From an uncultured Acidimicrobiales bacterium (GTDB taxonomy: Bacteria; Actinomycetota; Acidimicrobiia; Acidimicrobiales; SZUA-35), in the NCBI GenBank assembly GCA_963775125.1, contig CAVZHQ010000004.1, positions 7,549 to 71,548 on the forward strand: a DNA stretch of 64,000 nucleotides, written 5' to 3'. Position numbers and translations under genes: made by a program. Of the stretch, positions 7,132-30,405 are shown piece by piece (position 1 is the stretch's first letter; each line of letters opens with the position of its first letter). The notes below the pieces were generated by a model that saw only the letters and a program-made list of their open reading frames with translations, searched no databases and was not told where the DNA came from.

Positions 7132-7501
7132 CTGCGGCACCACCAATGACCCCGACACCATCGCCGGATTCACCCGGCGCATCGAAAGCGCCCGCTCGGA
7201 ACGAAACGGCGCCGAGATCCGCTTGCGGCGAGCAACCAGCGGACGGGGCCTCACCGAAGCCGAGATCCGAGCGGTCGTCAGCAACCTCGCTGATGCGTTG
7301 GTACTCCTCGCCAACGCATCGCATCAGGATCGGCGACGGGTCTACGAGGCGGCACAACTCGAGGTTCTCTAAGATCACGAAAACAACCGGGCCCAGATCT
7401 CGGTCGCCCCGAGGGTTACTGGTGGTGTCGGATGGGGGATTACAACCCTTAACCCACGCCGCCACAGCAGGTGGATCCCGTTGGCGACAGAGGCAGCGTG
7501 A
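7091..7501 (+). pseudogene. large serine recombinase C-terminal remnant (in-frame TAA at 7370-7372), running into repeat copy B
   Basis: FTRRIESARSERNGAEIRLRRATSGRGLTEAEIRAVVSNLADALVLLANASHQDRRRVYEAAQLEVL resembles the coiled-coil tail of actinobacterial large serine recombinases. After the TAA the same frame stays open through copy B to TGA 7499-7501. No catalytic domain is present. Confidence 0.45.
7426..7501 (+). repeat. ~72 bp repeat family, copy B
   Basis: TGTCGGATGGGGGATTACAACCCTTAACCCACGCCGCCACAGCAGGTGGATCCCGTTGGCGACAGAGGCAGCGTGA. Plus-frame translation VGWGITTLNPRRHSRWIPLATEAA*. Confidence 0.8.
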
Positions 7502-7552
7502 GCGACCCTTACCGGCCGCCCGTGGCAACGGGCTGGACCGCTCGACATTACT

Positions 7553-7579
7553 CGTATGCAATACGTATACTGAACGTAT
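7553..7579 (+). promoter_or_regulatory. candidate operator: CGTAT x3 at exact 11 bp spacing upstream of the RHH antitoxin gene
   Basis: CGTAT at 7553, 7564 and 7575 inside an AT-rich patch (TCGTATGCAATACGTATACTGAACGTATG). The last copy overlaps the ATG at 7578. RHH antitoxins typically bind tandem repeats. Confidence 0.3.
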
Positions 7580-7829
7580 GACGCAGACGTTAAGCTTCCG
7601 AGCCGAAACCTCACTCGCCACAGAACTCGATGCCGCAGCGGCCGAAGCAGGCGTTCCGCGGAGCGACCTGCTCAACCAGGCTGTCCGCGAGTTCCTCTAC
7701 CGCCTCCGATGCGAGCGCGACGCCGAGCGGTACGCCCTGCAACCGTTCACCGCAGCCGAGACGGCGGCCTGGCCGAACGAAGCATGGCCAGACGATGACA
7801 CCGACTGGACCGAAGTGTTCAGCCAATGA
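7578..7829 (+). CDS. ribbon-helix-helix antitoxin (MazE/CopG-like)
   Basis: 83 aa, MTQTLSFRAETSLATELDAAAAEAGVPRSDLLNQAVREFL (RHH pattern). ATGA overlap with the downstream toxin gene. Confidence 0.7.
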   Translation: MTQTLSFRAETSLATELDAAAAEAGVPRSDLLNQAVREFLYRLRCERDAERYALQPFTAAETAAWPNEAWPDDDTDWTEVFSQ

Positions 7830-8143
7830 AGCGCGGCGAGATCTGGTTTGCCGATATCGGACGAGGCGGGGATCGCCCCGTCCTCATCCTCACACGCGAT
7901 CCCGTCGCCGACCGTATCGACGCAGTCGTCGTAGCCCATCTGACAACGACAATTCGCGGCCTGACATCGGAACTGCCACTGGGCCCCGCCGACGGCCTCC
8001 AACGGGACTGCGTCGTCTCCTTCGACAACCTCCACACGATACCGAGATCGTCATTTCGCCGACGCGTCGCGGTCCTCCGCCCGTCACGACTCGACGAAGC
8101 ATGCGACCGACTGGGCGACGCGCTGGGCTGCGGCGACCACTGA
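7826..8143 (+). CDS. mazF: MazF/PemK-family endoribonuclease toxin
   Basis: 105 aa, MKRGEIWFADIGRGGDRPVLILTRDPV...VVVAHLTTTIRGLTSELPL...CVVSFDNLHTI. Typical PemK-fold signature. Confidence 0.85.
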   Translation: MKRGEIWFADIGRGGDRPVLILTRDPVADRIDAVVVAHLTTTIRGLTSELPLGPADGLQRDCVVSFDNLHTIPRSSFRRRVAVLRPSRLDEACDRLGDALGCGDH

Positions 8144-8336
8144 CGACCAACTCACGTCGATGCAGCGACGATGATCAGCGTCGCGCCCGCCTTGTTCTCG
8201 GGCGGTGACGACGCCAAGAACCTCGTCCGGCCCGTTTCGTTCACAGTGGCCTGTACAAGTGCCCCGGCGGCCGTGACCTGCTTCAGTGGTCTGCCCCATC
8301 GACTTCACTTGCGGCGGTGCCGGACCCGGATACGGG

Positions 8337-8455
8337 CTCTGGCCACTCGACCACACCATCACCTGGACCGAGCGGCAACTCGAACGCCGCGTCATCGACC
8401 ACATCCAGCACGAAGACGCTCACCCCGCCACCCGCTCGACGCAGCAACCACCCAC
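8337..8455 (+). mobile_element. integrase-core (rve) transposase C-terminal remnant
   Basis: LWPLDHTITWTERQLERRVIDHIQHEDAHP resembles the ECLDH..I....HL.R.L.EY..HYN..RPH tail. It is paralogous to the remnant at 13306-13407. Confidence 0.3.
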
Positions 8456-8883
8456 ATACAAACCAGTCGCACTTCGGCGATGGCCCCGGATCCGGCTCGA
8501 CTCCGAGCTGTCATTGGTTGCTGCGGTAGGTGCACTCGGGATCGGCGCTGGCCGACACGCCTGGCGGGAATCGCGTGTCAGGGTCGTACCCAATGCTGGC
8601 TCGGGCCCCGCCGAGGAGATCGACGTGGCTCACGTTGAGACGGGCCGCAGCAGCAGAGATCGCCTCAATCTCTGACTCTGACACGCAATCAATCGGGTCG
8701 AAGACGACGCAATCGGCGATGCCACCCCCGAACAGGTCGGTAAACAGCACCCCCCTCCGCCCTCCAACGACGCCTCGGACATCGGACCACACGGGCGGGA
8801 GGCCACCCTGCACTCGAGGCGGCGCAGGCCCAGCGAGCTGCACCGCCCATTGCAGGAAACCGATGGACGAACATCTGTTCCTA

Positions 8884-8956
8884 TGTCGGAGTGGCGATTA
8901 CAAACCTAAACCCACGCCGCCGAAGCCGGTGGATCCCATTGGCGCAAGCGGCGTGA
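8884..8956 (+). repeat. ~72 bp repeat family, copy C
   Basis: TGTCGGAGTGGCGATTACAAACCTAAACCCACGCCGCCGAAGCCGGTGGATCCCATTGGCGCAAGCGGCGTGA, translating as VGVAITNLNPRRRSRWIPLAQAA*. Preceded by CGAACATCTGTTCC, which resembles the flank of the real tRNA. Followed by the stem-loop GCGGC-TTCG-GCCGC at 8968-8981. Confidence 0.8.
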
Positions 8957-9083
8957 CAACCTGGTGGGCGGCTTCGGCCGCGCAATCGCGACGGCCTCAT
9001 CAACGAATACCCACATGCCGCCTGACCATCCACGACGCAATATCAGGCACCCACACGGTTGGGCCCGTCGGGTCTGCTTTGGG

Positions 9084-10165
9084 CTATCTGGCGATGACGT
9101 ACCAGTTGTTCTGGATGTCGTGTTCGAGTTCGTTCGTCTGTATCGACGTGAAACCGGCTTCGGTCAGGTACTCACGAGTCTTTTCCTCACCCCACATCGC
9201 GCCGAGACCTTCGCCTCCCTGAGCGAGCGAGACAGTCATGCAATGCATGCACGACACCGTGTAAAGAAGTGGTCCGATGGGGTGATCGATGTTGTTGTGC
9301 GGGAACGTCGACCCCTTGATGTCTTGCATCAGGTACACCCCGTCGGCCTTAAGGGCGCGATTGATGCCCTTCAGCACGTTGAGCGGCTGGGCCTGATCAT
9401 GGACAGCGTCGAACGTGGTGATGAAGTCAAACTCGTCAACGGGTGCCGTGACGTCGAAGTCGCTCAGATCGCGAGCGACGAACTCCACGTTCGACAGCCC
9501 ACGCTCGGCTGCCTGCGACCGCCCATAGGCGATCGCTTCGTCGGAGAGATCGAGGCCGACGAAGCGGCTGTTAGGAAATAGTTCGGCCAGTCGGGTGATG
9601 ACGCGGCCCTGGCCGCAGCAACATCGAGCATGCGGATGCCCGCCTCTAGTCGCTGCGTCAGTCCGGGAATCAACGGCAAGATGTCACTCTCGAGTCCCGA
9701 CATCACGGTCAGGGCGCTCTCCTCGGCCATCACGGTGTGGAACCGTGGATAGCGGTCGTACGGCACCCCGCCGCCGGCTCGGAAACACTCAGTGATGTCG
9801 TCCTCGACCGCGCCGAGCAAGGCGATGTACTGGGCGAACATCGCCATGTTGTCGGCGCCGGCTGCACGGGCCAGGAATGCCGAATGCTCGGCCGGCAGAC
9901 GGAACGTCAAACGGTCTTGGTCGACCACGTCGACAACCCGGGAGGTCACCATCGCCCCCAACCACTCCCGCACGTACCGCTCGTTCAGCCCGGCCGCGGC
10001 TGCGATCTCGGTCGAGGTGGCCGGCTCCATGCCGTTCATCGTGTCGAACAGACCCGTGCGATGGCCGATCGATGCCATGAGACACAACGCACCGTCGTTG
10101 AGCGCGCCGACGAAACGTTCGGCGAACGCACCAGCCCTGTCGTCATCGAAGCTCGGCACGCCCAT
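9084..10165 (-). pseudogene. class I SAM-dependent methyltransferase with N-terminal winged-helix/dimerisation domain; frame broken near 9619
   Basis: The N-terminal ORF reads ...GIRMLDV then goes off frame. Restoring one base (GTTGCTGC to GTTGGCTGC) gives DVGCGQGRVITRLAELFPNSRFVGLDLSDEAI (SAM motif I) and joins ORF 9084..9488 (FDFITTFDAVHDQAQP...). Confidence 0.8.
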
Positions 10166-10473
10166 CGATCACCTCCATGTGACTGGATCACCTCTCTGCT
10201 GACACCGGGATTGTAGAACGCGCTCTCAACGGCGTCATCACCGCCACAGTACTGAGACGCCCGGCACAGGCCCGGACGCGATTTTCGTGCGCAACACCCA
10301 GGCCACGCAGGAACACTCTGCCGACCACGCCCTCGGACCAGGGATCTGCACCCACAACGCCCGGATGGGTTCGACGCACTCAGCCCCGAATCGAGCGCGA
10401 CGGCACACAGGCATAGGCGACCACCTGGCGCCGGGCCCTCCCAGTGCTTGCCCTCGCTGGCCCCGGGAGTTAG

Positions 10474-11007
10474 TTCGTCGCAGCCATCATCCGTGCTGCC
10501 GGCATCGCCAGCCTTGACGGCGAACTCAACTGGAACAGCGGCCCCGAGGGGGTCGTCATGTCGCTCGGCGTGTCATTCTTTCCCGCGACGTACACCCTTC
10601 TCGGCCTCGTCATCACCCGCCGCGCCGTCCGCACCGGCGTCGCCGTGACCGGCCTCGGCCTGCTCGGCCTCGGCGCATTCGCCGGCATCGCATTCTTTCG
10701 CGTCTTCATGGCCAAGTTCACCGACGAAGGACTCGACCCCAACGCGATGAACCAGGCCTTCGAAGCGACCCACGTCGGGACATCGCGGCAATCATCAACC
10801 TCGTCAACTTCGCCGCATGGCTCACCGTCGGAATCGCCATCCTTAAGACGACAGTCGAACCTCGCTGGGTCGGAGCGTCCTGCATCGGCGGCGTGATCGC
10901 AGCGCTCCTCGCCAATCGCGTTCGAGTTGCTCTGGCCACTCAGCGCTGGCCTCTGGCCTGGAGCGACCATCGGCGTTGCACGTGCTTGGACTCGCACCGC
11001 CAAATGA
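10474..11007 (+). pseudogene. decayed small membrane protein (at least two frame breaks)
   Basis: Hydrophobic segments are spread over three frames: SLGVSFFPATYTLLGLVITRRAVRTGVAVTGLGLLGLGAFAGIAFF / DIAAIINLVNFAAWLTVGIAIL...GGVIAALLA / IAFELLWPLSAGLWPGATIGVA. No family recognised. Confidence 0.3.
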
Positions 11008-11148
11008 GACGCCCCGCCCAGATCGCCGACCCAGCGGCGGCCCGAAGTCTCGGTATCGGAACAACTACCGGTCCTACGATATGACCCACGGGCCACCAGG
11101 CCCCGTCTGACCAGGAGAAACGGCGGCTCCGTGGGGGTTAAACTCGGG

Positions 11149-11430
11149 TGTCGGAGGGGCGAGTCTAGCCCCAGTCTAGCCCAACGTACATCCGGCCCCT
11201 GGGGCGTCGAATTGCGAGTTGCATGAGCGTTCTAGCTGGTCAGAGGCCCTCTGGTGTCACCAATCGTCCTGGTCAATGTCGCCGAGGATCGTCGCAAGGT
11301 CTTGCGCGTACGCAAGCAGACGAACGACATCGACGTGGTCGACCCGCTCGAAGTAGAACCACCCGCATGGAAACCCTTCGAACCGGCGGGATCGCAGGCC
11401 TGGGACACCGGACAGCTCACCGATCCGCAG
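11149..11430. repeat. long direct repeat, copy G (tRNA-like remnant plus 3-prime half of parE)
   Basis: Starts TGTCGGAGGGGCGAGTCTAGCCCC. Shares CCCCTGGGGCGTCGAATTGCGAGT, CATGAGCGTTCTAGCTGGTCAGA and the parE codons for LRIGELSGVPGLRSRRFEGFPCGWFYFERVD with 22804-23073. Confidence 0.8.
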
Positions 11431-11586
11431 TGAGCCAGCGCCCGGCATACGCTCGACCACACCCAGTGACTCGATCGCGGCGTTGAAGAACCGTCCAGCG
11501 AGCTGTTCACCGCCTTCGGACCGGTAGTACCTGGTCCGCTCCACCAGGTCGGCCTCCGCTAGCGGACGCAGCCGAACTGCACTCAC
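11257..11586 (-). CDS. parE: ParE-family toxin
   Basis: 109 aa, VRLRPLAEADLVERTRYY...FEGFPCGWFYFERVDHVDVVRLLAYAQDL. 4 bp overlap with the upstream antitoxin gene. Confidence 0.85.
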   Translation of the reverse strand: MSAVRLRPLAEADLVERTRYYRSEGGEQLAGRFFNAAIESLGVVERMPGAGSLRIGELSGVPGLRSRRFEGFPCGWFYFERVDHVDVVRLLAYAQDLATILGDIDQDDW

Positions 11587-11834
11587 ACCTCAGGACCAAG
11601 GGCCCGACCCCGAAGCTCATCGACCACCTCGTCCGTCAAAGGACGACCCTCGCCAGACGCGATCCCGTCCGCCATCAACAATCGAAATCGGCGAGCAGCC
11701 TCGGCACTCTGATCGCGCCGGATCAGGTCGCGCAGATACTCGCTGGTGTTGCCGTACTCGCCCGAACGAACACGTTGATCGATGTAGTCCCGCAAGGACT
11801 CGGGGAGCGCGAAGCTCATCGTGTTCCGACTCAC
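11583..11834 (-). CDS. parD: ParD/CopG-type antitoxin
   Basis: 83 aa, MSFALPESLRDYIDQRVRSGEYGNTSEYLRDLIRRDQ. Typical ParD-family N-terminus, located directly upstream of parE. Confidence 0.8.
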   Translation of the reverse strand: MSRNTMSFALPESLRDYIDQRVRSGEYGNTSEYLRDLIRRDQSAEAARRFRLLMADGIASGEGRPLTDEVVDELRGRALGPEV

Positions 11835-12505
11835 CTGACCATTGTGTGCTCTTTATCAACTGTTGTCAATCGTCAGGAACTGACCCCCTCCAGTGGTCCA
11901 GCACGAGGATGCATCACGTCGCCCAGACCCTTCCTGCACCGCGACGTGTCCTCAAGACGAAAGGCGACGGCGTCATCAACCAGTGCCGAAATGCGACCTG
12001 ACCAGCCACGACCCAATATTCGGCCCCCACAAGGAGTACCACGAAGCCGTGATCGCTCATGACGAAGACCGGTCAATTACCGTCGTGGGGAACCTTTCGA
12101 GGGAAGGCACGATCAGTTGGCTTTACGACGCCCGTCTGCGTCAATCACCTCCTGAAACGCTACGTCCATCTGGTGCGCTGCAGGGAGAACTGGCGGAGCA
12201 CGAACACGGCGAGTGACTCCGCCTGAGCTCGAATTTGAGCAGAGAACTACATCGAGGTGACGTGGCCCAGCGAAGTTTCGACTAGCCAGCGAGACAACGA
12301 CAGTCGACCATCCGGCCCGGAACCGCATGTCAGCTCACGATTGCCACCGGGACTCGCTTCAGTGACTCTGCCACTTCGCCTCGATGAGGCCGCACGCACG
12401 ACCTATTTCACGCCTACTTCACAATGTTCAGTTTTAACTGATGACAAGTTATTGACATCTGGCCGAAACGCGGAATCCCCAGGCCGGTGACCTGGGGAAA
12501 CGTTG

Positions 12506-12578
12506 TGTCGGAGGGGCGATTACAACCCTTAACCCACGCCGCCGCAGCAGGTGGCTGGAGCTCGTCGCCGCGGCGTAA
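12506..12578 (+). repeat. ~72 bp repeat family, copy D
   Basis: TGTCGGAGGGGCGATTACAACCCTTAACCCACGCCGCCGCAGCAGGTGGCTGGAGCTCGTCGCCGCGGCGTAA, translating as VGGAITTLNPRRRSRWLELVAAA*. Confidence 0.8.
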
Positions 12579-12606
12579 CGGGCGAACGTTTCTGTGGGCG
12601 GCTGGC

Positions 12607-12909
12607 TCACCCGGCTTGGTCCGGGAAGCCGTCGATCCAGATGTCGACCGCGTAGACCACAAGAGAATCGGGCCTGGGATCGAGTTCGTCACCCGTGGCG
12701 AAGAGATGGAACGCGCCAACCGTGATGCCCACGACGGTCAATCGGCGACCGCCACCGTGCTCGGGCAACGAGTCCCAGACTCCCTCGCGAGACAAGAGAG
12801 TGAGAACCGAGGCCAGATCGTGCCGCCAGAAAAGCTCCGCCCTATCGGCATCGAGTTGGGCAGCGATTTCTTCCTCGACCGTCGCTCCGACCCGAACCGG
12901 TCGCCTCAC
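12607..12909 (-). CDS. hypothetical protein, downstream member of a TA-like gene pair
   Basis: 100 aa ORF with a 4 bp overlap with the upstream 81 aa ORF. No family recognised (..ELFWRHDLASVLTLLSREGVWDSLPEHGGGRRLTVVGITVGAFHLF..). Confidence 0.35.
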   Translation of the reverse strand: MRRPVRVGATVEEEIAAQLDADRAELFWRHDLASVLTLLSREGVWDSLPEHGGGRRLTVVGITVGAFHLFATGDELDPRPDSLVVYAVDIWIDGFPDQAG

Positions 12910-13151
12910 CTACCGAGGGCCCGCAAGCGACGCTGCTCCAGGTCGGCGAGGGGAACCCGGTTGATCGTCTCAGCTGACAGTTCGGCATCGGAGACGATTC
13001 GGAGCAGGTCGGCCTGGTGCTCGATGTCCTCAGCACTCGGGGCACGCGGAAGGGGGTTGCCCAGTCGATCGGTGGCCTCGGGCGTGGTCGGTATCGCCAT
13101 GGCTGCCATCGTAGTTGGCACCAGTGACAGCGGGTGGCGTCTCGCGGACAT
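12906..13151 (-). CDS. hypothetical protein, upstream member of a TA-like gene pair
   Basis: 81 aa or fewer (internal Met codons available). The acidic C-terminal half is EDIEHQADLLRIVSDAELSAETINRVPLADLEQRRLRALGR. Overlaps the next ORF. Confidence 0.35.
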   Translation of the reverse strand: MSARRHPLSLVPTTMAAMAIPTTPEATDRLGNPLPRAPSAEDIEHQADLLRIVSDAELSAETINRVPLADLEQRRLRALGR

Positions 13152-13305
13152 CGCCGGCGAGGTGATGACACCGCGTGTGGGGGCGCCGCCAGATCGACCG
13201 ACCCACGCTTAGCGACGACGACCGCGGCCGCACTCCCCCTGCCTCACCGAACCCGCTAGATCGTCACCCCCGACGCTCTGCTCCGACTGGCAGCGGCGCG
13301 GCTCG

Positions 13306-13407
13306 ATCCGCAGTGAACTCCTCGACCCCACGATCATCTGGAGCCAACAACAACTCGAACGCGTCGTCATCGACTACGTCGAGCGCCACAACACCTACCG
13401 GCCCCGA
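13306..13407 (+). mobile_element. integrase-core (rve) transposase C-terminal remnant
   Basis: IRSELLDPTIIWSQQQLERVVIDYVERHNTYRPR. Only the tail is present. It is similar to 8337-8455 (TITWTERQLERRVIDHIQH). Confidence 0.4.
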
Positions 13408-13457
13408 TGTTCGCGCCTCGCCTGCCATCACGACGCTCGCGCCCGACATCCCGAGGT

Positions 13458-15234
13458 TCAGCCTCCGTCCGTCGGTACGCCGTCCTCTGCCGTCAGCGAC
13501 GCAGCTGCGCGCTCGGCCAGCACGTGTTTGCGGATCTTCCCGGTGGTCGTCATCGGCAGGTCACCGGCATCGACCAGAAGCACATGAGCGGGCACCTTGA
13601 ATCGAGCGAGCCTCTCTGCGCACCAGCCGCGCACCTCGTCGGGGTCGACGGTTGTGTCCACGGTCGGCACGATCCATGCGCAGCCGACCTCCCCCAGCCG
13701 TTCGTGCGGCATCGGCACCACGAAGGCCTGCGCGATGTCCGCTCGGCTGGTCAGCAGGTTCTCCACCTCGAGCGGCGACACTGTCTCGCCGTAACATCGG
13801 TACAACTCCTTGGCCCGACCCGTCAGTTCGACGTAACCGTCGGGGCGCAGGCGTGCCAGGTCCCCCGTCCGCAGCCAGCCGCCGGGGAGGAATGCCGCCT
13901 GCGTCTCGTCCTGCTTTCGGTAGTACCCGTGAGTCACCGTTACCCCCTTCAGCACGAGCTCACCCTCCGCTCCTGCTGGCACGTCGGCGGAATCGAAGGC
14001 GTCGACGATCCGGAATTCGAGCGAATGGTTGGGGTCAGAGCGTGTCCGAGAGCGACCCCGAGTCGAGCGGACGGCCCACCGTGGTGCTGTGCAGCACGAG
14101 TGGATCGGAAGGCTCGGTGAGGGTCGCCGGGCCGACGGTCTCGGTCATCCCGAATCCGGTACCGAGCTCACGCACCCCGAGCTCGTCTCCCACGCGTTGC
14201 CACAGCCGCTGGGGCGAAGCTGCGCCGGCGGAGAACACCGACCGCAAGCTCGACAGATCGCAATCAACGCGCCCGGGAAAGTCGAGGATCGCGGAGGTCA
14301 TGGTCGGCACCAACATGACGTCGGTTGGCCGGTGGCGTTCCACAGCGGCGCACGTGTCTTCCGGGGAGAACACGAGGCGAGGAATGATGGCGCCGCCGAC
14401 CTGCATCGATGCCAGCAGCCCGCAGATGTAGCCGAATGCGTGGTAGAGCGGCAGGGCGAACAGGCAACGGTCGCCGTCCGCGAGACCACGTTGGCGCGCG
14501 GTGAGGTACGCCTGCCGGACCTGCATGTCGTGCGTCCACACCACCCCCTTGGGGCTCCCAGTGGTGCCGGACGTGTACATGATGTCGGCCATGTCGTCGG
14601 GCTTGCCACGATCACTTCCCGGGATGATTCCAGCGGACAGGGCAGCACGTCCTCGGTCCAGGAGCCCCGTAAAGGACAACGCATCCGGGCGAGCATTGGC
14701 GCCGGTGTCGTAGACGACGACCCTGCGCAACTCCGGCAGTGCTTGCCCGCCGCCAGACGTCTCCCAACCGGGAGCCATCGAGTCCAGGGCGGCGAGATGG
14801 TCGAGGGTCCGCCATTGCGACATCACCACGAGCGCCCGGCTGTCCGACTGCTGGAGGACGTAGCGTAGCTCCTCGGTGCGGAGCAGGTAGTTGAGGTTCA
14901 CTGCGACGGCCCCGAGCCGGGCGATCGCGAACTTGAGCGCAGGCCACTCCGGGTAGTTCCCCAGCACGATGGCGACATGGTCGCCGGCCTGGACCCCGAT
15001 GTCGGCCAACCCGGCCGCGAGGATCACGGACATCTCCGCTACCTCGGCGTAGCTGATCTCGCGGTCGTCTGCGACCACGAGCGGGCGATCGCCGTAGCGT
15101 TCCGCTTGACGATCGAGGTACCCGCTGAGGGTCGTCTCCCTCCACGGGGTGTTCGCAGCGTCCAACGCCGCACGCCGTTCCGCAACGGCTGGAACGGCAC
15201 TATCCGTTTGGGTGCTCATCGATGAGTTCCTCAC
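13458..15234 (-). pseudogene. AMP-dependent acyl-CoA synthetase/ligase; frame broken near 14037
   Basis: The N-terminal ORF 14035..15234 has IMYTSGTTGSPKGV and GFGMTE and ends ...TVGRPLDSGSLSDTL*. The C-terminal ORF continues (DP)NHSLEFRIVD...GELVLKG...WLRTGDL...GKIRK. Removing one base in CTCTGAC joins them. Confidence 0.85.
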
Positions 15235-15258
15235 TGTCGGTCTATTCGGTCATCAGGA

Positions 15259-17354: not shown

Positions 17355-19726
17355 GTGACCACCACCGGTTCACGCCCGACCTCCCGGGATCTGCTCTCGT
17401 TCAGCGCCGCCCAGATCACGCTCGGAGTCAACGGCAAGCCATCGATGTGCGTTCCGAGAGCGTCGGCCACCGCACCGGCGAGTACGGCCCCGGGGCCAAG
17501 CGTGCCGCCCTCCCCGACGCCGCGCACCCCCAGCGGGTTGTCAGCAGGAACCGAGAGGTGATCGATGGTCAGATCGGGAATCTCGACCGCGGTGGGCAGT
17601 AGGTAGTCCGTCAGCGTGGTGGTCAGCAGGTTGCCCTGCGCGTCGTAGACGAGCTGCTCGTAGAGCGCGGCACCGATGCCCTGCGCGATCGCGCCCGTGA
17701 CCTGACCCTTCACAATCACGGGATGCAGAACGCGCCCCACGTCCTCTACGCAGGCGTAATCCAGGATGCGGAGCTCGCCGGTCGCTCGATCGATCTCGAC
17801 CACTCCGGCTTGCGCCCCAGCGGCGAAGGCGCCCTGGATCGGGTCGTAGAAGCGCATCGCTTCCAGTCCCGGCTCGAAACCCTGCGGTAGCCGGTTGGTC
17901 TCGAAGTAGGCGACCCGGGCCACATCGCGGACCGACATCCGGGCGGTGGCCTCGGCGTCGACGAACACGTGTCCGCCGCGCACCGTCACCCGATCGACGG
18001 CGAGGTCGAGCAGGGCGGCAGCGAGCGCAAGTACCTGCTCGCGAACTGCAGTGGAGGCTCGCCAGGCAGCGTTGCCCGCAATCACGGCCTGACGTGACGC
18101 GAATGCCCCGAAGCTCCATGTGGACTCCGCTGTGTCGCCGATGCGGACGTTGACATCGTCGTAGGCGATACCGAGCGCCTCGGCCGCGATTTGGGCCAGC
18201 GTCGTCTCGAGGCCCTGACCCTGTGAGGTCACGCCGCTGACGACGACGGCGCGCCCATCGGGGTCGATGCGTACCGTCACCGCCTCGTGGCCCGTCCGGA
18301 ACGGCATGCGCGGTCCCGCCGATGCGGCGCGCCCCAGGCCGGTGAGCTCGTTGTAGCAGGCAATCCCGATACCGATGTCCGGTTCGCCGACGCTGCGGCG
18401 CCGGGCCTGCTCGATACGTACTTCGTCGTACTTGATCAGGTGGAGGACCCGGTCCAGACAGGCGCCGTACTGGCCGGACTCGTCCCGCAGCCGCGTCGGC
18501 ATCGTGTACGGGACGTGCTGGGGACCGATCAGGTTGCGGCGGCGGATCTCGACATCGGAGATGCCGAGGGCCCGGGCGGCGTCGCTGAGCAGGGTCTCCA
18601 TCGCATAGACGGTGGCGGGCCGGGACACCCCCCGGTACGGCCCGGTCGGTGCCGTGTTGGTGGTGATGCCGCGAACGCTGCAGTCGAAATTCGCCAACCG
18701 GTAGGGACCGGTAAGGAGTCCACCCGCCATGAGCGGCTCGGCCCCCGCCGTCCCGGGGTAGACCGAGTAGGCGCCGGCGTTGCACGTCACGTCCGCGCGT
18801 AGGGCCAGCAGCTCACCGTCTGCAGCGAAACCTGCCTCGAGCACGTATCGGTGATCGCGCGCGTGGGTCGCCGCCTGGATGTGCTCGACGCGGTCCTCGA
18901 CCCATTTGACGGCGATGCCTGGCATGCGGCGGGCGACCAGACAAAGTGCAATGTCCTCGGGGTAGACCGCAGATTTCGTGCCGAACCCGCCGCCGACGTC
19001 CGGAGCGATGACCCTGATGCTGCTCTCGGGCAGCTCGAGCAGGTCGGACAGCGCATTGCGGAGCAGGTGCGGACTCTGGCTCCCCGCCCAGTAGGTGAGC
19101 TTGCGGTCGGCCTCCTCCCACAGGGCGACACCGACACGGCACTCGAGTGGGTTGCCTGCCTGCCGGTTCGAGGTGAGGGTCCGTCGCACGACGACAGCCG
19201 ACGCGGCGAGAGCGGCCGTCACGTCGCCCGCCTCGAACCTGCGCTCGAGGAGCACGTTGTCCGGGGCATCGGCGTGCACCGGTTCGACCGGGACGTCCCA
19301 CGCACAGACCTGAGCGGGTAGCGGTTCGAGATCTACCGCGATGAGTTCGAGCGCGTCCTCGGCCGCGTACGCGTTGCGAGCGACGACGACTGCGATCGCC
19401 TCGCCGGCAAACCGGACCTTGTCCACGGCAAGGGCCGGCTGATCGGTCTCCACGTACGACGGCAGCGCGGACAACGCGCGCAACGCGATGCCCTGGAAGT
19501 CCTCGCCGGTGAACACGGCGTCTACCCCTCGCAGGGCGCGGGCCGCCTCTGCGTCCACACTGCGGATGCGGGCATGGGGGCTGGAACTGCGGAGGAAGGC
19601 CACGTGGCGCATCCGCGGTAGCTGGAGATCGCCGACGAACCGGCCCTGCCCGGTCAGCAAGCGCCGGTCCTCCTTGCGGCGGACAGCGGCACCGAGCACG
19701 GTCCCGGGCTGCTCACTCCCGGTCAC
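17351..19726 (-). CDS. molybdopterin-binding large subunit (CoxL/XdhB-like) of the molybdenum hydroxylase
   Basis: 791 aa intact ORF with GGGFG (DVGGGFGTK), GVSRPATVYAMETL, SQGQGLETTLAQIAAE and VRGVGEGGTLG landmarks. 4 bp overlaps on both sides. Confidence 0.9.
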   Translation of the reverse strand: MTGSEQPGTVLGAAVRRKEDRRLLTGQGRFVGDLQLPRMRHVAFLRSSSPHARIRSVDAEAARALRGVDAVFTGEDFQGIALRALSALPSYVETDQPALAVDKVRFAGEAIAVVVARNAYAAEDALELIAVDLEPLPAQVCAWDVPVEPVHADAPDNVLLERRFEAGDVTAALAASAVVVRRTLTSNRQAGNPLECRVGVALWEEADRKLTYWAGSQSPHLLRNALSDLLELPESSIRVIAPDVGGGFGTKSAVYPEDIALCLVARRMPGIAVKWVEDRVEHIQAATHARDHRYVLEAGFAADGELLALRADVTCNAGAYSVYPGTAGAEPLMAGGLLTGPYRLANFDCSVRGITTNTAPTGPYRGVSRPATVYAMETLLSDAARALGISDVEIRRRNLIGPQHVPYTMPTRLRDESGQYGACLDRVLHLIKYDEVRIEQARRRSVGEPDIGIGIACYNELTGLGRAASAGPRMPFRTGHEAVTVRIDPDGRAVVVSGVTSQGQGLETTLAQIAAEALGIAYDDVNVRIGDTAESTWSFGAFASRQAVIAGNAAWRASTAVREQVLALAAALLDLAVDRVTVRGGHVFVDAEATARMSVRDVARVAYFETNRLPQGFEPGLEAMRFYDPIQGAFAAGAQAGVVEIDRATGELRILDYACVEDVGRVLHPVIVKGQVTGAIAQGIGAALYEQLVYDAQGNLLTTTLTDYLLPTAVEIPDLTIDHLSVPADNPLGVRGVGEGGTLGPGAVLAGAVADALGTHIDGLPLTPSVIWAALNESRSREVGREPVVVT

Positions 19727-20493
19727 GGCATCACGTACCCGCCGTTGATCGACACGACCTGACCGGTGATCCAGGACGTCAGCGGTGAGGCCAGCATCAA
19801 CACCATGGGTGGGATGTCGTCGATGACGCCGAGCCGGCGCAACGGGTACTGCCGCAGCACTTTCTGCATCCGTGGGCTATCGATATCGCCGAACATGTGC
19901 TGTGTGGTGTTGGTCTCGACGAGGCCCAGCGAGACTGCGTTCGCCCGGATGCCGTAGCGCGCGAGTTCCTTGGCGAGGGACTTCGTGAGGCCGAGGGTCG
20001 TCGATCGCGTCGTCGCAGTGATCAGCAACCCGGCCTCGCCGGTACGGCCCGAGTCGCCCATCATGCTGACGACCGCTCCTCCGCCAGTCGCCGCCATGCG
20101 CTTGGTCACGGCGTGTGTGATCTGCAGGGTGCCGGTCACGGTGACGTCGATCTGGTCCTTCCATTCCGCGGGCGTGGACTCCAGGAACGGCCCGGGAAAC
20201 GTCCACGCGGCGTTGTTGATCAGCACGTCGATCGTTCCGACGCCTTGCTCGGTCTGATCGACCAGGCTCGCCACGGCCTCTGCATCGCGCATGTCCGCCT
20301 GCACGGCAATCGCGTTCACCCCGAGCGAACGCGCGTCGGCCGCCGCCTGCTCCGCCCCCTCTGCCGAGCTGTTGTAGTGAAAGACGACGTTGGCGCCCTC
20401 ACCTGCGAACGCGAGCCCGATGGCGCGTCCGGCGCCCTGACCGGCACCGGTGACCAACACCGTGCGCCCAGCAAGTTGCATATCCATGTTCAC
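19723..20493 (-). CDS. SDR-family oxidoreductase (FabG-like)
   Basis: 256 aa, VLVTGAGQGAGRAIG (cofactor motif), NNAA, and the typical C-terminus GQVVSINGGYVMP. Confidence 0.9.
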   Translation of the reverse strand: MNMDMQLAGRTVLVTGAGQGAGRAIGLAFAGEGANVVFHYNSSAEGAEQAAADARSLGVNAIAVQADMRDAEAVASLVDQTEQGVGTIDVLINNAAWTFPGPFLESTPAEWKDQIDVTVTGTLQITHAVTKRMAATGGGAVVSMMGDSGRTGEAGLLITATTRSTTLGLTKSLAKELARYGIRANAVSLGLVETNTTQHMFGDIDSPRMQKVLRQYPLRRLGVIDDIPPMVLMLASPLTSWITGQVVSINGGYVMP

Positions 20494-20529
20494 TCCTCGT
20501 TATGGGTTACGTAAGGGAAGGCGGACGGC

Positions 20530-21364
20530 TCAGACCTGGATGAACTCGCGGCGCGAGCCGACGGTCACCACGCGACCCCACGCCAGACCGGGTAGGTGGG
20601 CCGGCGCGACGACATCACCGGAGTCGACGATCTCCTCGCGCAGTGCGTCCCGTACCGCCCGGGCCGCGATGGGGTCAACATCGAACACCGCGTCCCAGTC
20701 CGCCTCGGTCAACTCGACGACGCTGTGGACGACATCGCCCAGCAGTAGTGCCCGGGCGCCGTCGCCGGACAGCGACGTAGATCGTGGTGCCGGGGGTGTG
20801 ACCAGGGGCAGCTCGGGCGTCGAGACCAGGCAGGACGGTGTGGTCACTGTCGAACGTCGCCAGCCGCTCGGTGAGGGGCGACAGCTTGCGGATCGCACCC
20901 GGCTCGGCGTCGGGTCCGGTCATGAAGTGGTCCCAATCCGCTTGGTGCACCCGATAGGTGGCGTTCGGGAACACCACTTCTCCGCGCTGCGTCGCCCATC
21001 CGACGTGATCGAAGTGGAGGTGGGTGAACAGTACGTCGGTCACATCAGCGGGATCGACCCCGAGCGTGCGCAGCGAGTCCAGGAACGCACCGCCTTCGGC
21101 GACGTCGGTGCGGATCGGTCCTGTCCCAACGTCCACAAGTGCGATCCGGTCCCCGGATCGCACGAGGAATCCTCCCATCGCCATTCCCAGGTGGCCTTCG
21201 TCATCCAGAAGGTGCCCGTGGCAAGCCCAGCCATCCTCGACACCGGAGCGGACGAGCACCTCCCGCGCCATCACACGGCCAGGGCCGTCGAAGACCGGGT
21301 CGATCCTCAGTCCAGCGAGCCGCAGCGAACCCGGTGAGCGGCCATCCGGGGTGATGTGCTGCAT
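20530..21364 (-). pseudogene. MBL-fold metallo-hydrolase; frame broken near 20775
   Basis: THLHFDHVGW (HxHxDH) and APGHTPGTTIYV lie in ORF 20675..21364. The frame shifts to SLSGDGARALLLGDVVHS...VAPAHLPG in ORF 20530..20898. Confidence 0.8.
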
Positions 21365-21560
21365 AGCGCCTCCCTAGCGATTGCTCGGACTGTTGGGTGC
21401 CAACCCTACGACAACTATGCGACGTACGTCAAGAGAATGTTGCATAGCGAACGCTTCACTCACTGACGGACGGGCCGCAATCGCGCAACGCTTCGGGGAC
21501 CTGTCCACTGCTAGCATCCATCCCTCGCAGCGGAGCCCGCCTGATCGGGAAGGACCGAGA

Positions 21561-22392
21561 ATGACCAGCGACGACCAAACGCCCGGCCGTACAGCGGTTG
21601 CGCGTCGCCCGCAGGAGCTGGTCCGAGCACTGTTGGGCGTCGTCGATGCCGACCTCGGCTGCTCGCAACCCATCCCGGTACGGGTGTACCTCGAGGTTTT
21701 GACTGAACTCGGGGTAAGCGAAGTGGCCTGTCGGGCAACCCTGAGCCGGATGGCCAAGAAGGGCGCGTTGGAGCGCAGCCGGGAGGGCCGGAGCGTCGCC
21801 TTCCGAGCGAGCCCTCGCACCCGCGACCTACTCTTCCGGGACCGGGAACGAATCCTCTCGTCGAGCCCTTTCGAGCACCCCGGCGACGGCTGGACCGTGC
21901 TCATGTTCTCCGTCCCAGAGTCGCGACGGGACGTTCGGCATCGCCTCCGCACACGACTGAGCTGGGCAGGGTTCGGACCGCTCGGCGACGGACTGTGGAT
22001 CGCCCCCGGCTCGCCGGACGTCGACGACGTACTCATCGTGGTCCAGGATCCGGCTGACCCTGGCTCCTCCATCACGGTCTTCGACGCAGTCCCACGACTA
22101 CCCACACGGGCGGAGGACGTAGTCGCCCAAGCCTGGAATCTGCCCGCCGTCCGTGGTGAACACGACACGTTCCTGCAGGAGTGGGAGGCGGTGGAGGAGA
22201 GCGAGCTCGAGCGCGTTGGCCACCCTCTCGGCGCTGAGCGTGGACTGGATCCGGCTCCTTCGAGTCGACCCAGGCCTTCCCGCTCGCTATCTCCCCCACG
22301 ACTGGCCCGCCGGGAGATCGACAGCGACCTATCGCCGGCACTACGAGCGGCTCGGCCCAGCGGCGCGCAGTCAGTTCACGGCCCTCGGCTGA
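21561..22392 (+). pseudogene. paaX: PaaX-family transcriptional regulator; frame broken near 22205
   Basis: ATG 21561. VYLEVLTELGVSEVACRATLSRMAKKGALERSREGRSVAF (winged-helix), WTVLMFSVPESRRDVRHRLRTRLSWAGFGPLGDGLWIAP. The C-terminal part continues in another frame: LSALSVDWIRLLRVDPGLPARYLPHDWPA. Confidence 0.75.
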
Positions 22393-22803
22393 GTCGGCGC
22401 ATCGAACGCACGAGGCGCACCTTCCGGGCGGCGTACAGGCGGGACCGGAGGTTCGAGCTCTAGTGCGAACCAACCACGTCGATGGTCGTGCCCTTGACCA
22501 CAAGAATTCCTTGGGCCCGCCGCCAGAACCCGACCGGGTCTCGGCTTGTTCGTCGCCGTGGGCTTCGACCTAGGCGACGCTTGGGTGGTCATTGACCCGC
22601 GACATGCAAGAACGTGTACCCCAGTCTCCGGCACCGGGACCTGGCCTCGTCCATGGACACGCCAATTCGACCCCGATATCACAGAATTCGATCGCGCGAG
22701 CCTGCGCAAGGCGCCTCCTGCAGCAGCCCCGGCGGCCAAACCAAGGACCCCAGTGGTCTGCACCGACATCTGCACCAACCGTTGAACGAACACTTGTTCG
22801 ATG

Positions 22804-23073
22804 TGTCGGAGGGGCGACTTTAACCCAAAGTACACGCGTCCCCTGGGGCGCCGAATTGCGAGTCACATGAGCGTTCTAGCTGGTCAGACGCTCTCTGGTG
22901 TCACCAATCGCCTGGCCAATGTCGCCGAGGATCATCGCAAGGTCTTGCGCGTATGCAAGCAGACGAACGACATCGACGTTGTCGACCCGCTCGAAGTAGA
23001 ACCACCCACATGGAAACCCTTCGAACCGACGGGACCGCAGACCTGGGACACCGGACAGCTCACCGATCCGCAG
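22804..23073. repeat. long direct repeat, copy F (tRNA-like remnant plus ParE-like 3-prime half)
   Basis: TGTCGGAGGGGCGACTTTAACCC... aligns with 11149-11430. Its left flank CGAACACTTGTTCGATG matches the flank of the real tRNA (CGAACATTCGTTCGATG at 30389-30405). Confidence 0.8.
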
Positions 23074-23235
23074 TTGCACTGCTCCCCAGATTGTGGCGGC
23101 CATAGAACATCGGGTGATCGCGCTCGAAGAGACCGCTTCCATCAGGAAGCGGACGGAATCCGTGTCGGTTTGAACAGACAACACCCAACTGTCGGGCAGA
23201 TAAACGTGCTCAGGTCCAGAAGTTGACTCGCTCAC
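22876..23235 (-). CDS. ParE-like ORF (C-terminal half nearly identical to parE at 11257, N-terminal half diverged)
   Basis: 119 aa. ...AVQLRIGELSGVPGLRSRRFEGFPCGWFYFERVDNVDVVRLLAYAQDLAMILGDI. Faint N-terminal similarity (RFLMEAVSSSAI vs RFFNAAIESLGV). The start GTG 23235 overlaps the stop of the upstream NTase gene (GTGA). Functionality uncertain. Confidence 0.55.
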   Translation of the reverse strand: MSESTSGPEHVYLPDSWVLSVQTDTDSVRFLMEAVSSSAITRCSMAATIWGAVQLRIGELSGVPGLRSRRFEGFPCGWFYFERVDNVDVVRLLAYAQDLAMILGDIGQAIGDTRERLTS

Positions 23236-24005
23236 CCGTGGTCACCGGCCCATATTCGTTGGTGAGCCCCGATGCACCACGCATCGATCTTCTCCCGTTC
23301 AGGTGTCGGGCGGATCGATTCGTCGTTGCCGATGGCTTCGAGCTGGCTATCGAGTTCGAGGCTGCGCTCCCACCACTCGTCGAAGTCGACCTTGCCGTAG
23401 CGAACGGCGCGAAGCCATTCAGCCGGTTCACCCTGAATCGGAAGCTCGAGCCTGCCTGTCGACAGAAGCTCGAGACACTGGAACCCAAGGCGTGCGCAGT
23501 GCATCGCGTACTTGGTGTCGTACCCGAACTCGTTGACCAACTCCTCGCGGCCGCCACTCCCCCGCTTACCGTGGCCGCCGCCAGCGACACCGAGTAGCCG
23601 GCGGGCCTGGGACTGCATGTACCCGCGGTAGCGAGGCACGACATGACGGCCAACGAACGCTTCACCGAGCGCTTGCAGCTCCTCGCCCATCGGCGTCGAG
23701 TACTCGATGGGTGCCCACATTGTCATCAAGATCGACGGGTTCCCGGCCGCCGCCATCCGGACGAAACGGCGCAACGAGTGCAGCGTCCGATCGGTGTCAC
23801 CTGGCCCGGATCGTGACCCCTCAGGTTGGGTGCGCTGCATCACCGTCTTGAAGCCGTGCTCGTCCAGGCCGAGTAGCTGTTCCGGTGTTTCAACGACGAC
23901 GGCCAGCTGGTCGTGATCCTCACCACCATCGATCCCGGTGCCGTCCGCGGTCGAACCCACCTCGACCATCAGAATCGTCGTCTCAGGCAGGGGCGGGATC
24001 TCCAT
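23232..24005 (-). CDS. nucleotidyltransferase, Pol-beta superfamily (COG3541 / Nuc-transf-like), paralogue 1
   Basis: Start at ATG 24005 (MEIPPLPETT). VGSTADGTGIDGGEDHDQLAVV fits the GS-x9-[DE]x[DE] NTase motif. The helical C-terminal half (YDTKYAMHCARLGFQCLELLSTGRLELPIQGE) matches my recollection of COG3541 proteins. Confidence 0.65.
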   Translation of the reverse strand: MEIPPLPETTILMVEVGSTADGTGIDGGEDHDQLAVVVETPEQLLGLDEHGFKTVMQRTQPEGSRSGPGDTDRTLHSLRRFVRMAAAGNPSILMTMWAPIEYSTPMGEELQALGEAFVGRHVVPRYRGYMQSQARRLLGVAGGGHGKRGSGGREELVNEFGYDTKYAMHCARLGFQCLELLSTGRLELPIQGEPAEWLRAVRYGKVDFDEWWERSLELDSQLEAIGNDESIRPTPEREKIDAWCIGAHQRIWAGDHG

Positions 24006-24162
24006 CACACCATCGTGGTCGACAAATTGCGTCACCGGGTTGAATTCTGCGCCGGAGTGGTCCCGTCGATGGGCACACACCGCCTCCGCGTGATGCGAGG
24101 TCACACTCAGGCGAGCAACCAGTGACGCCCATCGAGCGATGCTGCCCTGCCCTACAGACGCC

Positions 24163-24975
24163 TCACCGACTGGACCGCCGGAGTACCTTGTTGATCCTGA
24201 CCCATCGGGAGGGCTTCTCGACTTCGACGCCGCCCATGAAAGCATCGCCCAGTCGTGACCCACGGCTCGGTTCGCCGTCAATCAGTCGTCGTGCCGACTC
24301 CCTCACGGCATCGTCCACAGTCGCCTGGTCGCCCTGGATCACGCGGTCGTCGAGCATCACATACCAGTCGTCGAGCCCGGAGAACTCGGCGAGCTCTTCT
24401 CGGTAGTTCGAGTTCTGGTAGAGCTTCCACAGCTCGACCGCGAGCGCCCGGGCGGACCCGCCATTGTCCAGGAACCGCTGAGCCTCAAGGCGGGCGAGCG
24501 CAACGTATGCGTCCTCGGAGTGCTTCTCGGCAACAGTTAGCCCGAGCTCGTCAAAGACATCGACAGCGATGTCGCTTGCTTCCTCGTCAGCGAACCGCGC
24601 AGGCGCCCCAGCGAGAACCCGTAGCGACCGCGTGTCCAGCCCCTCCATCAACGCAGCGACCGCAGCGTCAACGAGCGGCTTCCCATACCCGGTTCCCGCC
24701 CACTCGATCGCGGCTTCTTCGAATCGACGGACAGCTCCTGCCGCAACACCGCTATGACCTGTTGCCGGTCCAGACCAAAGATCGACGTTGCCGGACTCGA
24801 GAAACTCGCCTACAGCGCCGGCGGCAAAGACAGGGTCCGCCGGATACTCTCCACCCAGGTACTCGACCAGCTCGCCCGGCAAGAACGGACCAAGCGACGT
24901 TACGTAGTCGTCGAACTCCGCTTGGACGGCGCGCCAGTCTGCGTAGCGCTTCTTCGTCAGGAGCATCCCGTGCAT
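24163..24975 (-). CDS. hypothetical protein (shares a helical domain with 28959..29489)
   Basis: Start at ATG 24975 (MHGMLLTKKRYADW). VDAAVAALMEGLDTRSLRVLAG...FDELGL aligns with VDAAVQALLAGVESPSFVPIAG...LDELNL in the other ORF. Confidence 0.5.
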   Translation of the reverse strand: MHGMLLTKKRYADWRAVQAEFDDYVTSLGPFLPGELVEYLGGEYPADPVFAAGAVGEFLESGNVDLWSGPATGHSGVAAGAVRRFEEAAIEWAGTGYGKPLVDAAVAALMEGLDTRSLRVLAGAPARFADEEASDIAVDVFDELGLTVAEKHSEDAYVALARLEAQRFLDNGGSARALAVELWKLYQNSNYREELAEFSGLDDWYVMLDDRVIQGDQATVDDAVRESARRLIDGEPSRGSRLGDAFMGGVEVEKPSRWVRINKVLRRSSR

Positions 24976-25019
24976 CGTGTGGACGATCGTGATTCGGTCT
25001 TCCGATATGACTGGTCCGT

Positions 25020-25253
25020 TCACCGGTGATCCCTCGGGACACAATCAAGATGGGCATCGCTCGGCGAGGGAGGGCGACCCGGGCAGTACGGGCACGAGGA
25101 ATCGCCGCACGCCGTCTCGAGCCACACATCGCACCGGACGCAGAAGAAGGCATCGAACTCTTCACAGAGCACGACCACGCTGCCACAGGTGTGAACCTCG
25201 TCGTTCACAATGACATCGAGGTCGCTCGGTGAGTGCCGACCGGATACGGACAT
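25020..25253 (-). CDS. small Cys-rich hypothetical protein (possible zinc ribbon)
   Basis: 77 aa, HTCGSVVVLCEEFDAFFCVRCDVWLETACGDSSCPYCPG with CxxC pairs CVRC and CPYC. Third-position GC looks coding-like. Could be spurious. Confidence 0.35.
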   Translation of the reverse strand: MSVSGRHSPSDLDVIVNDEVHTCGSVVVLCEEFDAFFCVRCDVWLETACGDSSCPYCPGRPPSPSDAHLDCVPRDHR

Positions 25254-25504
25254 ACATCCAGTATCGGCCAGATCAGCGGCGTGGGGACGAGCGATTTCGC
25301 CGCTGCTGGACTGGGTTCTCCGGGCTCGGCATTAGCAGAAGCATTAGCAAACTACACCCCAACCACCGAAGAACCCGCTGTTTACGCGGGTTTTGGCCTC
25401 TACCGAAAGGAGGGTGAAATGCAGTCACCCGTCCAACACCCCGAAATTCTTCGTGGCATCTAGAGCCCTGGAGCGGCAAATAGCGTCATCCAGTGACCCA
25501 AACG

Positions 25505-25577
25505 TGTCGGAGGCGGGATTACAACCCTTAACCCACGCCGCCGAAGCCGCTGGATCCCGTTGGCGAAGGCGGCGTAG
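25505..25577 (+). repeat. ~72 bp repeat family, copy E
   Basis: TGTCGGAGGCGGGATTACAACCCTTAACCCACGCCGCCGAAGCCGCTGGATCCCGTTGGCGAAGGCGGCGTAG, translating as VGGGITTLNPRRRSRWIPLAKAA*. Confidence 0.8.
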
Positions 25578-30380: not shown

Positions 30381-30388
30381 GGTCTGAT

Positions 30389-30402: not shown

Positions 30403-30405
30403 ATG

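Follow-up and report, generated by a model that had tools for sequence, protein, structure and literature searches.

Large serine recombinases (LSRs), which combine an N-terminal Resolvase catalytic domain with a Recombinase domain and a zinc ribbon bearing a coiled-coil insert, recombine attP with attB at a central dinucleotide, and excision needs a directionality factor. In tyrosine-integrase islands the bordering repeat equals the 3' segment of the tRNA gene and rebuilds a functional tRNA, and integrons rely on the tyrosine recombinase IntI, an attI site and cassettes whose attC sites are conserved as folded inverted repeats. The present analysis concerns a 64,000-nucleotide stretch of DNA from an uncultured Acidimicrobiales bacterium (contig CAVZHQ010000004.1, positions 7,549 to 71,548; hereafter the window), with a base composition of 65.5% G+C, in which an earlier note made from the sequence had described four repeats that look like tRNA-Leu 3' ends and had assigned them to the 3' coding end of what is probably a serine recombinase gene. 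These repeats very probably represent the right part of the att site of LSR-mobilised integrative elements together with the stranded 3' ends of their LSR genes, the elements being of a family common in Acidimicrobiia-like Actinomycetota.

Several described systems share parts of this arrangement. According to the part of the account drawn on here, actinobacterial integrative elements (AICEs) with serine recombinases in Mycobacterium integrate into a tRNA-Leu gene, which its authors call rare (Ghinet 2011, PMC3218068). Those AICEs have in common with the present locus an actinobacterial LSR and a tRNA-Leu target, whereas their host is Mycobacterium rather than a member of Acidimicrobiia, and that part of the account mentions neither an att site within the open reading frame (ORF) nor a tail swap or arrays of orphan tails (PMC3218068). 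The ssrA islands of Dehalococcoides carry a CcrB-like serine integrase, DsiB (McMurdie et al. 2011, PMC3146451), and resemble the present array in the insertion by a serine recombinase in the T-loop region of a tRNA-like gene, in the tandem arrangement with short direct-repeat borders, in the many islands without an integrase and in the position of the integrase next to its target; they differ in the tmRNA target, in the 20-bp repeat and in a second small recombinase, DsiA, and for them neither an overlap of the site with the integrase ORF nor a coding tail is reported (PMC3146451). The archaeal 'suicidal' integrases of the SSV type likewise have the site in their own ORF, target tRNA genes and leave fragments that evolve separately (Badel et al. 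2020, PMC7253208), but they are tyrosine recombinases that are split into two inactive pseudogenes (PMC7253208), whereas here only about 20 disordered C-terminal residues are exchanged and ORFs of about 550 aa persist in the integrated form.

Mycobacteriophages such as BPs have attP inside a coding sequence, so that integration removes an XXXAA tag from Rep, and Int of these integration-dependent phages is C-terminally tagged as well (PMC3694055; PMC8092301). The likeness to phages of the BPs type consists in an in-gene attP at a tRNA target and in different protein forms encoded by free and integrated genomes; in those phages, however, the repressor gene is split and the integrase is a tyrosine recombinase, whereas here the serine recombinase itself is split. 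A comparable removal of a tag may be read here from the endings, AA in the tail and GGGT in the integrated form. Integration-dependent immunity of mycobacteriophages such as BPs is reportedly the subject of work by Broussard et al. in 2013. Domain architecture, an attP of about 50 bp forming an imperfect inverted repeat and a 5-bp rule are shared with the recombinases of A118/LI, Bxb1 and phiC31 (Rutherford et al. 2013, PMC3783163), but unlike the canonical systems the present one has a longer core in common with its target (14 nt), a tRNA gene as that target and a site within the ORF, so that integration changes the protein. What the locus shares with integrons is no more than an array layout and toxin-antitoxin cargo; an integron attC array was rejected, with no conserved fold on either strand and no tyrosine recombinase among the window ORFs tested. 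Full-text literature, of which coverage was incomplete, contained no serine integrase with attP in its own 3' coding end, with a tail swap or with arrays of orphan tails.

All four repeats named in the earlier note lie on the forward strand where it had placed them, with translations, stop codons (TGA, TGA, TAA and TAG) and synonymous Arg codons before Trp (AGG, CGG, AGG and CGC) as it had read them, and each scores E 1e-20 to 1e-23 against a profile built from these four. Copy B (7426..7501) comprises the att core, the P' half-site and a 20-codon tail, ITTLNPRRHSRWIPLATEAA; the core and P' half-site are followed by the tail ITNLNPRRRSRWIPLAQAA in copy C (8884..8956), by ITTLNPRRRSRWLELVAAA in copy D (12506..12578) and by ITTLNPRRRSRWIPLAKAA in copy E (25505..25577), each tail ending at its stop codon. 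A 38-nt consensus with three mismatches allowed matched three of the four named copies and nothing in 100 shuffles. The set of four proved incomplete, as three weaker copies occur in the same orientation: the outermost copy at 3643..3687, a degenerate att core with the start of a type-1 tail (nhmmer E 1.8e-4); a decayed type-2 tail with an 11-bp internal duplication at 11149..11226, found with the profile and by self-BLAST; and a core with the type-2 tail VGGATLTQSTRVPWGAELRVT at 22804..22870. Including the tRNA-Leu(GAG) gene (30405-30489, minus strand; ARAGORN, Rfam), which is the sole tRNA gene in the window, there are thus eight sites between 3.6 kb and 30.5 kb, seven of them tail copies, all in the same orientation.

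The resemblance to a tRNA-Leu 3' end is confined to the first 14 nt of the repeats, TGTCGGAGGGGGGA, and their T-arm-like part carries a 5-nt insertion relative to the tRNA; on both counts the repeats are unusable as tRNA 3' halves. Similarity among copies does not always end at the stop codon, as had been proposed: motifs 5-15 nt past the tail stop, GGTAGGCG or CGTTTCGCCTGGTCA, are present in subsets of copies (loci L001, L002, L005, L007, L015 and L031 of other genomes; window positions 8965-8972 and 25578-25600), with GGTGGGCG, a variant of GGTAGGCG, after copy C and CGTTTCGCCTGGTCA after copy E. These post-stop motifs may serve the elements in regulation or protein binding. The GC hairpins noted after copies B and C are present, but they are no stabler than those of shuffled sequences (z -1.2 and -0.1) and lack a T tract. 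A 255-bp duplication, 92.5% identical, links 11177-11431 with 22821-23074 and takes in a type-2 tail together with the 3' portion of a parE-like gene; the copy at 11149..11226 and about 250 bp after it thus duplicate 22804-23074, and array segments have therefore been duplicated inside the genome.

Copies of the unit were found well beyond the window. A pattern scan of representative genomes, a set that does not include the genome of the window, gave two loci, L001 and L002, and a scan of metagenomes gave 26 more, nearly all with true copies; about 40 further copies of the same two-part unit stand in Acidimicrobiia-type metagenome contigs. These relatives are often arrayed with a spacing of about 1-1.5 kb and carry small genes, among them RHH-MazF and RHH-PIN toxin-antitoxin pairs. 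L001 (CAVTWS010000012.1) and L002 (CAVTAI010000005.1) belong to metagenome-assembled genomes (MAGs) labelled Acidobacteriota, whereas a 93%-identical cassette is common to L001 and the window and the named protein relatives all come from Acidimicrobiia or other Actinomycetota; the mismatch could be a binning or label error or the result of horizontal transfer. In the phage collection nothing matched the LSR at the protein level or, to any meaningful extent, the repeat at the DNA level, a pattern scan of viral contigs for the repeat gave nothing, and the sole match in the plasmid collection was a frameshifted copy from Mycolicibacterium aubagnense that is cut off at the core, without tRNA or tail.

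Comparison of these copies separates a DNA site from a coding tail. The pattern had 37 distinct matches, three of them chance, and 27 copies of equal length were used for diversity and pN/pS. An in-frame stop lies 18-21 codons past the ATT codon in 32 of the 37, exactly at codon 19 in 27, and the other two frames have no such stop pattern. The first approximately 35 nt of the unit are conserved at every codon position and the next 36 nt or so drift as codons: codons 1-7 (ATT RCA ACC CTT AAC CCA CGC) are near-invariant, with a diversity of 0.08/0.03/0.04 at positions 1/2/3, which points to constraint at the DNA level, and codons 8-19 have a diversity of 0.41/0.31/0.53. The P' half-site and the last codons together follow the pattern ITTLNPR-x-x-S-x-W-hydrophobic-x-L-x-x-AA-stop; changes in both final Ala codons fall almost entirely at position 3, a stop is preserved in one of the forms TGA, TAG and TAA, the tail ends in AA in 26 of the 27 equal-length copies, and pN/pS is 0.63 in frame as opposed to 0.93 and 1.50 out of frame. 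An RNA fold does not explain the pattern, since RNAalifold on 22 copies found no conserved structure on either strand (-5.9 kcal/mol on the plus and -3.5 kcal/mol on the minus strand, with a covariation term of about 0). By the codon-position diversity, the kept stop and the absence of an RNA fold, the unit reads as a DNA site followed by a real coding tail. The coding-like evolution proposed for the whole repeat therefore holds for the last 12 codons, the first 11 or so being constrained as a DNA half-site.

Recombinase genes read through the repeat. At L022 and L026 the upstream frame runs through it up to the contig edge, and the upstream sequence is typical of the C-terminal region of actinobacterial LSRs; the LSR P0051 has the C-terminus ...ACTNECVGGAIATLNPRSRSPWLQLAEAA, and type-2 tails stand at the recombinase C-termini of P0046, P0007, P0013, P0017 and P0349 (for example ..VGGATQTLSTWNPWTGSYVAA, and ..GVGGTTQMVTPRAATVGLLDVAA in the 618-aa P0349). 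Searches with the recombinase fragment of L022 and L026 and with relatives brought up hundreds of proteins labelled 'recombinase family' in MAGs of Acidimicrobiia and Actinomycetota, and the clade as a whole numbers more than 1600 proteins at E below 1e-40. Full-length relatives have about 550 aa and the domain order Resolvase, Recombinase and Zn_ribbon_recom (Pfam PF00239, PF07508 and PF13408 in P0171, P0181 and P0152; the same three in the precomputed annotation of P0297-P0404), and many matches are N-terminally cut because contigs end at the element, as at L033. A sequence search of the PDB with P0171 gave no match at E 1e-5. In the window itself the only recombinase remnant, by tblastn with seven LSR queries, is 7148-7501. 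It consists of an LSR pseudogene fragment on the plus strand (7148..7425), the C-terminal approximately 95 codons, with an in-frame TAA at 7370-7372, after which the frame continues into copy B. Read through the TAA, it aligns by BLASTP with the C-terminus of P0051 at 39% identity over 119 aa (E 4e-19), including the tail, although Pfam had no match for ORF 7091-7372 or for the overlapping minus-strand ORF. The proposals that copy B lies in frame with a serine-recombinase fragment interrupted by one TAA, and that genes ending with this peptide are LSRs, are thus borne out. The AlphaFold2 model of P0051 is folded up to about residue 377; beyond it the att-encoded stretch and the tail (residues 378-406) have a predicted local distance difference test (pLDDT) score of 29-36, with a weak helix at 398-405. 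As modelled, the att site sits in a region encoding disordered peptide that would easily tolerate constraint at the nucleotide level.

The integrated form is seen at tRNA-Leu. The C-terminus is ..VGGGT or ..VGGGI in 88 of the 136 relatives that reach 530 aa or more, and ..GGLEPPRP.. or ..RGDLNPH.. in others; the GGGT/I, GGLEPPRP and RGDLNPH endings are the antisense tRNA T-arm translated in different frames. At L030, L033 and L036, whose junctions were read directly, the end of the recombinase ORF runs antisense into an intact tRNA-Leu(GAG), where it stops at the TGA within GGGGGACTTGAACCCCC, inside the T-loop; the L030 recombinase is frameshifted. Placement of the att site inside the 3' coding end, as the earlier note had it, agrees with these junctions. 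Downstream of them lie SBP_bac_5, SecG, TIM and PGK genes, and to the right of 30489 the window has, by ORF translation, a solute-binding-protein-like ORF, at least the first gene of this context. L036 holds an intact recombinase of 550 aa in an element with a TrwC relaxase and without phage genes; by its relaxase this element looks integrative mobilisable or conjugative. At L038 (11629-21647) a serine recombinase is joined to a 52-nt tRNA-Leu 3' fragment, after which comes an island bearing genes for a capsid, Prim-Pol, HTH_17 and a tyrosine integrase, a layout from which it follows that two integrase families use the same tRNA-Leu.

The anatomy of the sites fits an LSR substrate. The attP, about 51 bp long, is an imperfect inverted repeat, GCGTGTACTAACGAGTG-TGTCGGAGGGGSGA-TTRCAACCCTTAACCCACGC, and lies wholly inside the last approximately 30 LSR codons (...ACTNECVGGGI(T/A)TLNPR), followed by about 12 codons and the stop. 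The attB consists of the tRNA-Leu(GAG) 3' end (acceptor stem and T-arm, antisense) plus about 20 bp downstream and has the layout GATCGAACATTCGTTCGATG, TGTCGGAGGGGGGA, CTTGAACCC-----CCACG. In the right arms, GACTTGAACCC-----CCACG of the tRNA stands against GATTRCAACCCTTAACCCACG of P', which has a 5-bp insertion; in the left arms the offset between GTGTAC (P) and CTGTTC (B) is again 5 bp. The outer motifs, GTGTAC and (A)CCCAC/GTACAC in attP and CTGTTC and GAACCC in attB, are therefore closer to the centre in attB. For LSR sites the rule is that attB has its outer zinc-ribbon motif 5 bp nearer the centre than attP does (PMC3783163), and the arm offsets, as read from the sequence patterns, appear to match it.

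The sites of the window differ in their left halves. The left flank of copy B is recombinase coding sequence, which makes it attP-like. The 20 nt upstream of copy D still resemble a recombinase end (..GKRCVGGA) and tblastn with P0051 matches 12486-12575, so this site is probably attP-like as well, with recombinase sequence on its left. The sites at 8884 and 22804 are attL-like, with an attB-type flank on the left; the GTACAC motif of the latter mirrors the left arm of attP. The left flank of such sites is often part of a conserved right-end element of cassettes, about 100-270 nt long and without a long ORF, which in the window occupies 8809..8883 (plus strand; BLASTN to L002 and alignment), ending in the attB-type left half-site GACGAACATCTGTTCCTA, and 22727..22803 (plus strand), with the left half-site TTGAACGAACACTTGTTCGATG; further examples are L031 16330-16584 and L007 2855-3109. 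Against readings of the GAACGAACAYYTGTTCGATG flank as plain chromosomal attB DNA or as the end of another gene, frame analysis and alignment place it in this conserved element. At the tRNA itself (30385..30489 with its 3' flank, minus strand), positions 30385 to about 30432 have the layout of an unoccupied attB, with the B left half, the 14-nt core and the T-arm as B' right half, and judged by sequence, alignment and comparison with the attR junctions of L030 and L036 the attB is complete.

In the proposed mechanism, recombination of attP with attB would join the LSR body to tRNA-Leu at attR, where the ORF would then end in ...VGGGT, and the P' half-site with the last codons would end up at the far junction, attL. 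Since attP lies inside the recombinase ORF, each insertion would cut about 20 aa off the enzyme and exchange its disordered -AA tail for ...GGGT. On this reading the window holds at least seven insertion events or remnants, from 3.6 to 30.4 kb, beside an apparently free attB, its recombinases having been lost apart from the one C-terminal pseudogene fragment, while tails and cargo remain. We infer that the tail is functional in the free-form enzyme. It is most likely an ssrA-like degradation or regulatory tag (...AA-COOH), with different integrase forms made by excised and integrated elements; the AA ending, the nonpolar C-terminus and the predicted disorder resemble the XXXAA tags of phage Int and Rep.

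A number of observations weigh against this reading. No recombination was observed, and neither an excised circle nor attP on a free replicon was seen; the genes bearing tails are all in chromosomal-looking contigs or at contig ends, and in P0051, the example with a type-1 tail, the N-terminal catalytic domain is missing. The pN/pS of 0.63 signifies only moderate constraint. The case for a degron consists of predicted disorder and the ...AA ending, which 26 of the 27 copies have; -IT, -VT or -AS stands at the end of some type-2 tails. Furthermore, canonical LSR chemistry fails to explain the many interior attL-like sites and the intact attB of the window. In many interior sites P' is preceded by an attB-type left half, and attL sites in such numbers without attR sites are not products of canonical recombination of attP with attB. 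The earlier idea that each integration leaves an orphan gene tail thus holds in so far as tails are stranded, but taken alone it does not account for the attB-type left flanks beside many tails or for the intact attB next to the tRNA. LSR-less cassettes with conserved ends are probably moved in trans or shuffled between arrays; RecA-mediated shuffling between repeats, or tyrosine-integrase islands supplying a new flank, as exemplified by L038, are possible sources of the pattern.

That the repeats are instead displaced tRNA 3' fragments of tyrosine-integrase islands, with a coding look arisen by chance, would agree with tandem repeats that share the orientation of tRNA-Leu and begin with its 3' end, and with the island of this type that occupies the same tRNA in L038; but a 14-nt match with a 5-nt insertion could not rebuild a tRNA, no tyrosine integrase (Phage_integrase) is found among the window ORFs tested, the frame, stop and codon-position pattern hold in about 30 independent copies, and recombinase genes read through the repeat, so that this origin is very improbable. 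Even harder to credit is a structured RNA, either tRNA-like on the minus strand or a toxin-antitoxin leader on the plus strand. The resemblance to a tRNA 3' end and the inverted repeat ACGCCGCC...GGCGGCGT held by the window copies would suit it, but the inverted repeat is missing from divergent copies, RNAalifold gave neither a conserved fold nor covariation, and Rfam and ARAGORN have no match besides the true tRNA.

As the main alternative to a degradation tag, the tail might be a functional recombinase module, for example autoinhibitory or interacting with the coiled coil, whose loss on integration changes directionality. A conserved Trp with hydrophobic spacing in both tail types, the weak helix predicted at residues 398-405 and the persistence of intact integrated ORFs of about 550 aa speak for such a module, but no structural contact is predicted for a tail with a pLDDT of about 30; we regard this role as rather unlikely. 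Somewhat less doubtful, though still tentative, is an addition to the att-site reading, by which the units would be working recombination sites of LSR-less cassettes in an integron-like array at tRNA-Leu. A circle with an attL-like site would insert by attL x attR recombination between an integrated LSR and the tRNA, restoring the LSR tail and regenerating attB, and would be excised by attP x attB recombination in cis. Such a model fits the LSR rules and would account for the many interior attB-type left halves within the conserved element of about 100-270 nt, the recurrence of toxin-antitoxin cassettes of 1-1.5 kb, the same MazEF-like cassette in different array contexts in the window and L001, LSR remnants that lie at a distance from the tRNA and have their tails restored (window 7148-7501; L031 at 11149) and the complete attB as the tRNA-proximal site of the window. 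However, no circular form is seen, recombination of attL with attR requires a directionality factor and none is identified, and homologous recombination between repeats of 70-170 bp, or islands of the tyrosine type, could give the same pattern. It is with reserve that we mention a clade-wide switch, in which a tailed excised enzyme, subject to proteolysis or directionality control, would alternate with a tail-less GGGT form, and in which cassettes would exploit attL x attR recombination, building integron-like arrays at tRNA-Leu.

The finding corrects the common assumption that serine integrases avoid tRNA genes; in the Islander work of 2014 they were not known to target them (PMC4383910). Among bacteria and serine recombinases, it is a counterpart of what is called 'suicidal integrase' and 'gene capture' in archaea. 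Serine integrases are key tools of genome engineering and the control of their directionality is an active question; a clade that rewrites its own C-terminus on integration suggests an undescribed layer of control, by which stability or activity would be tied to the integrated or excised state. The elements can be mapped by a simple signature, an LSR ORF ending in ..VGGGT and stop, ..GGLEPPRP or ..RGDLNPH antisense to a tRNA. Moreover, the reading accounts for short ORFs labelled 'hypothetical' in Acidimicrobiia genomes, along with a class of repeats there that look like tRNAs, and marks tRNA-Leu as a site where toxin-antitoxin and other cargo accumulate.

The cargo of the window comprises MazEF-like and ParDE pairs, RlaP paralogs, a barstar-like protein and a metabolic block. 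The cassette after copy B encodes an RHH antitoxin (7578-7829) and a PemK/MazF toxin (7826-8143), both on the plus strand and assigned by Pfam; by BLASTN this cassette (window 7522-8196) is 93% identical to the L001 cassette, which lies between two repeat copies. Directly before the antitoxin gene, a promoter-like site in 7542-7577 (TCGACA, an 18-nt spacer and TATACT) overlaps the palindrome GTATGCAATACGTATAC and is probably, from its layout, an autoregulated promoter/operator of the toxin-antitoxin pair. A ParE toxin (11257-11586) and a ParD antitoxin (11583-11834) are encoded on the minus strand (Pfam). Two RlaP-family nucleotidyltransferase paralogs with 78% DNA identity (23248-24018 and 28091-28861) occupy adjacent cassettes, and a barstar-like gene lies at 26951-27304. 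PADLOC had no match for ten cargo proteins. Apparently split genes are present inside the array at 9084-10165 and 13458-15234 (minus strand): an Rv2258c-like HTH ORF with a separate methyltransferase-like ORF, the latter labelled by eye only, and an ORF pair resembling a two-part acyl-CoA synthetase, also by eye only. The split ORFs suggest decay of the cargo. Farther to the right, a 241-bp direct repeat, 97% identical, occupies 53360-53600 and 53744-53981, with a diverged third copy at 54014-54171 (76%); near-perfect palindromes lie at 53639-53669 and 54217-54252, and small ORFs of about 61-68 aa overlap these repeats and palindromes.

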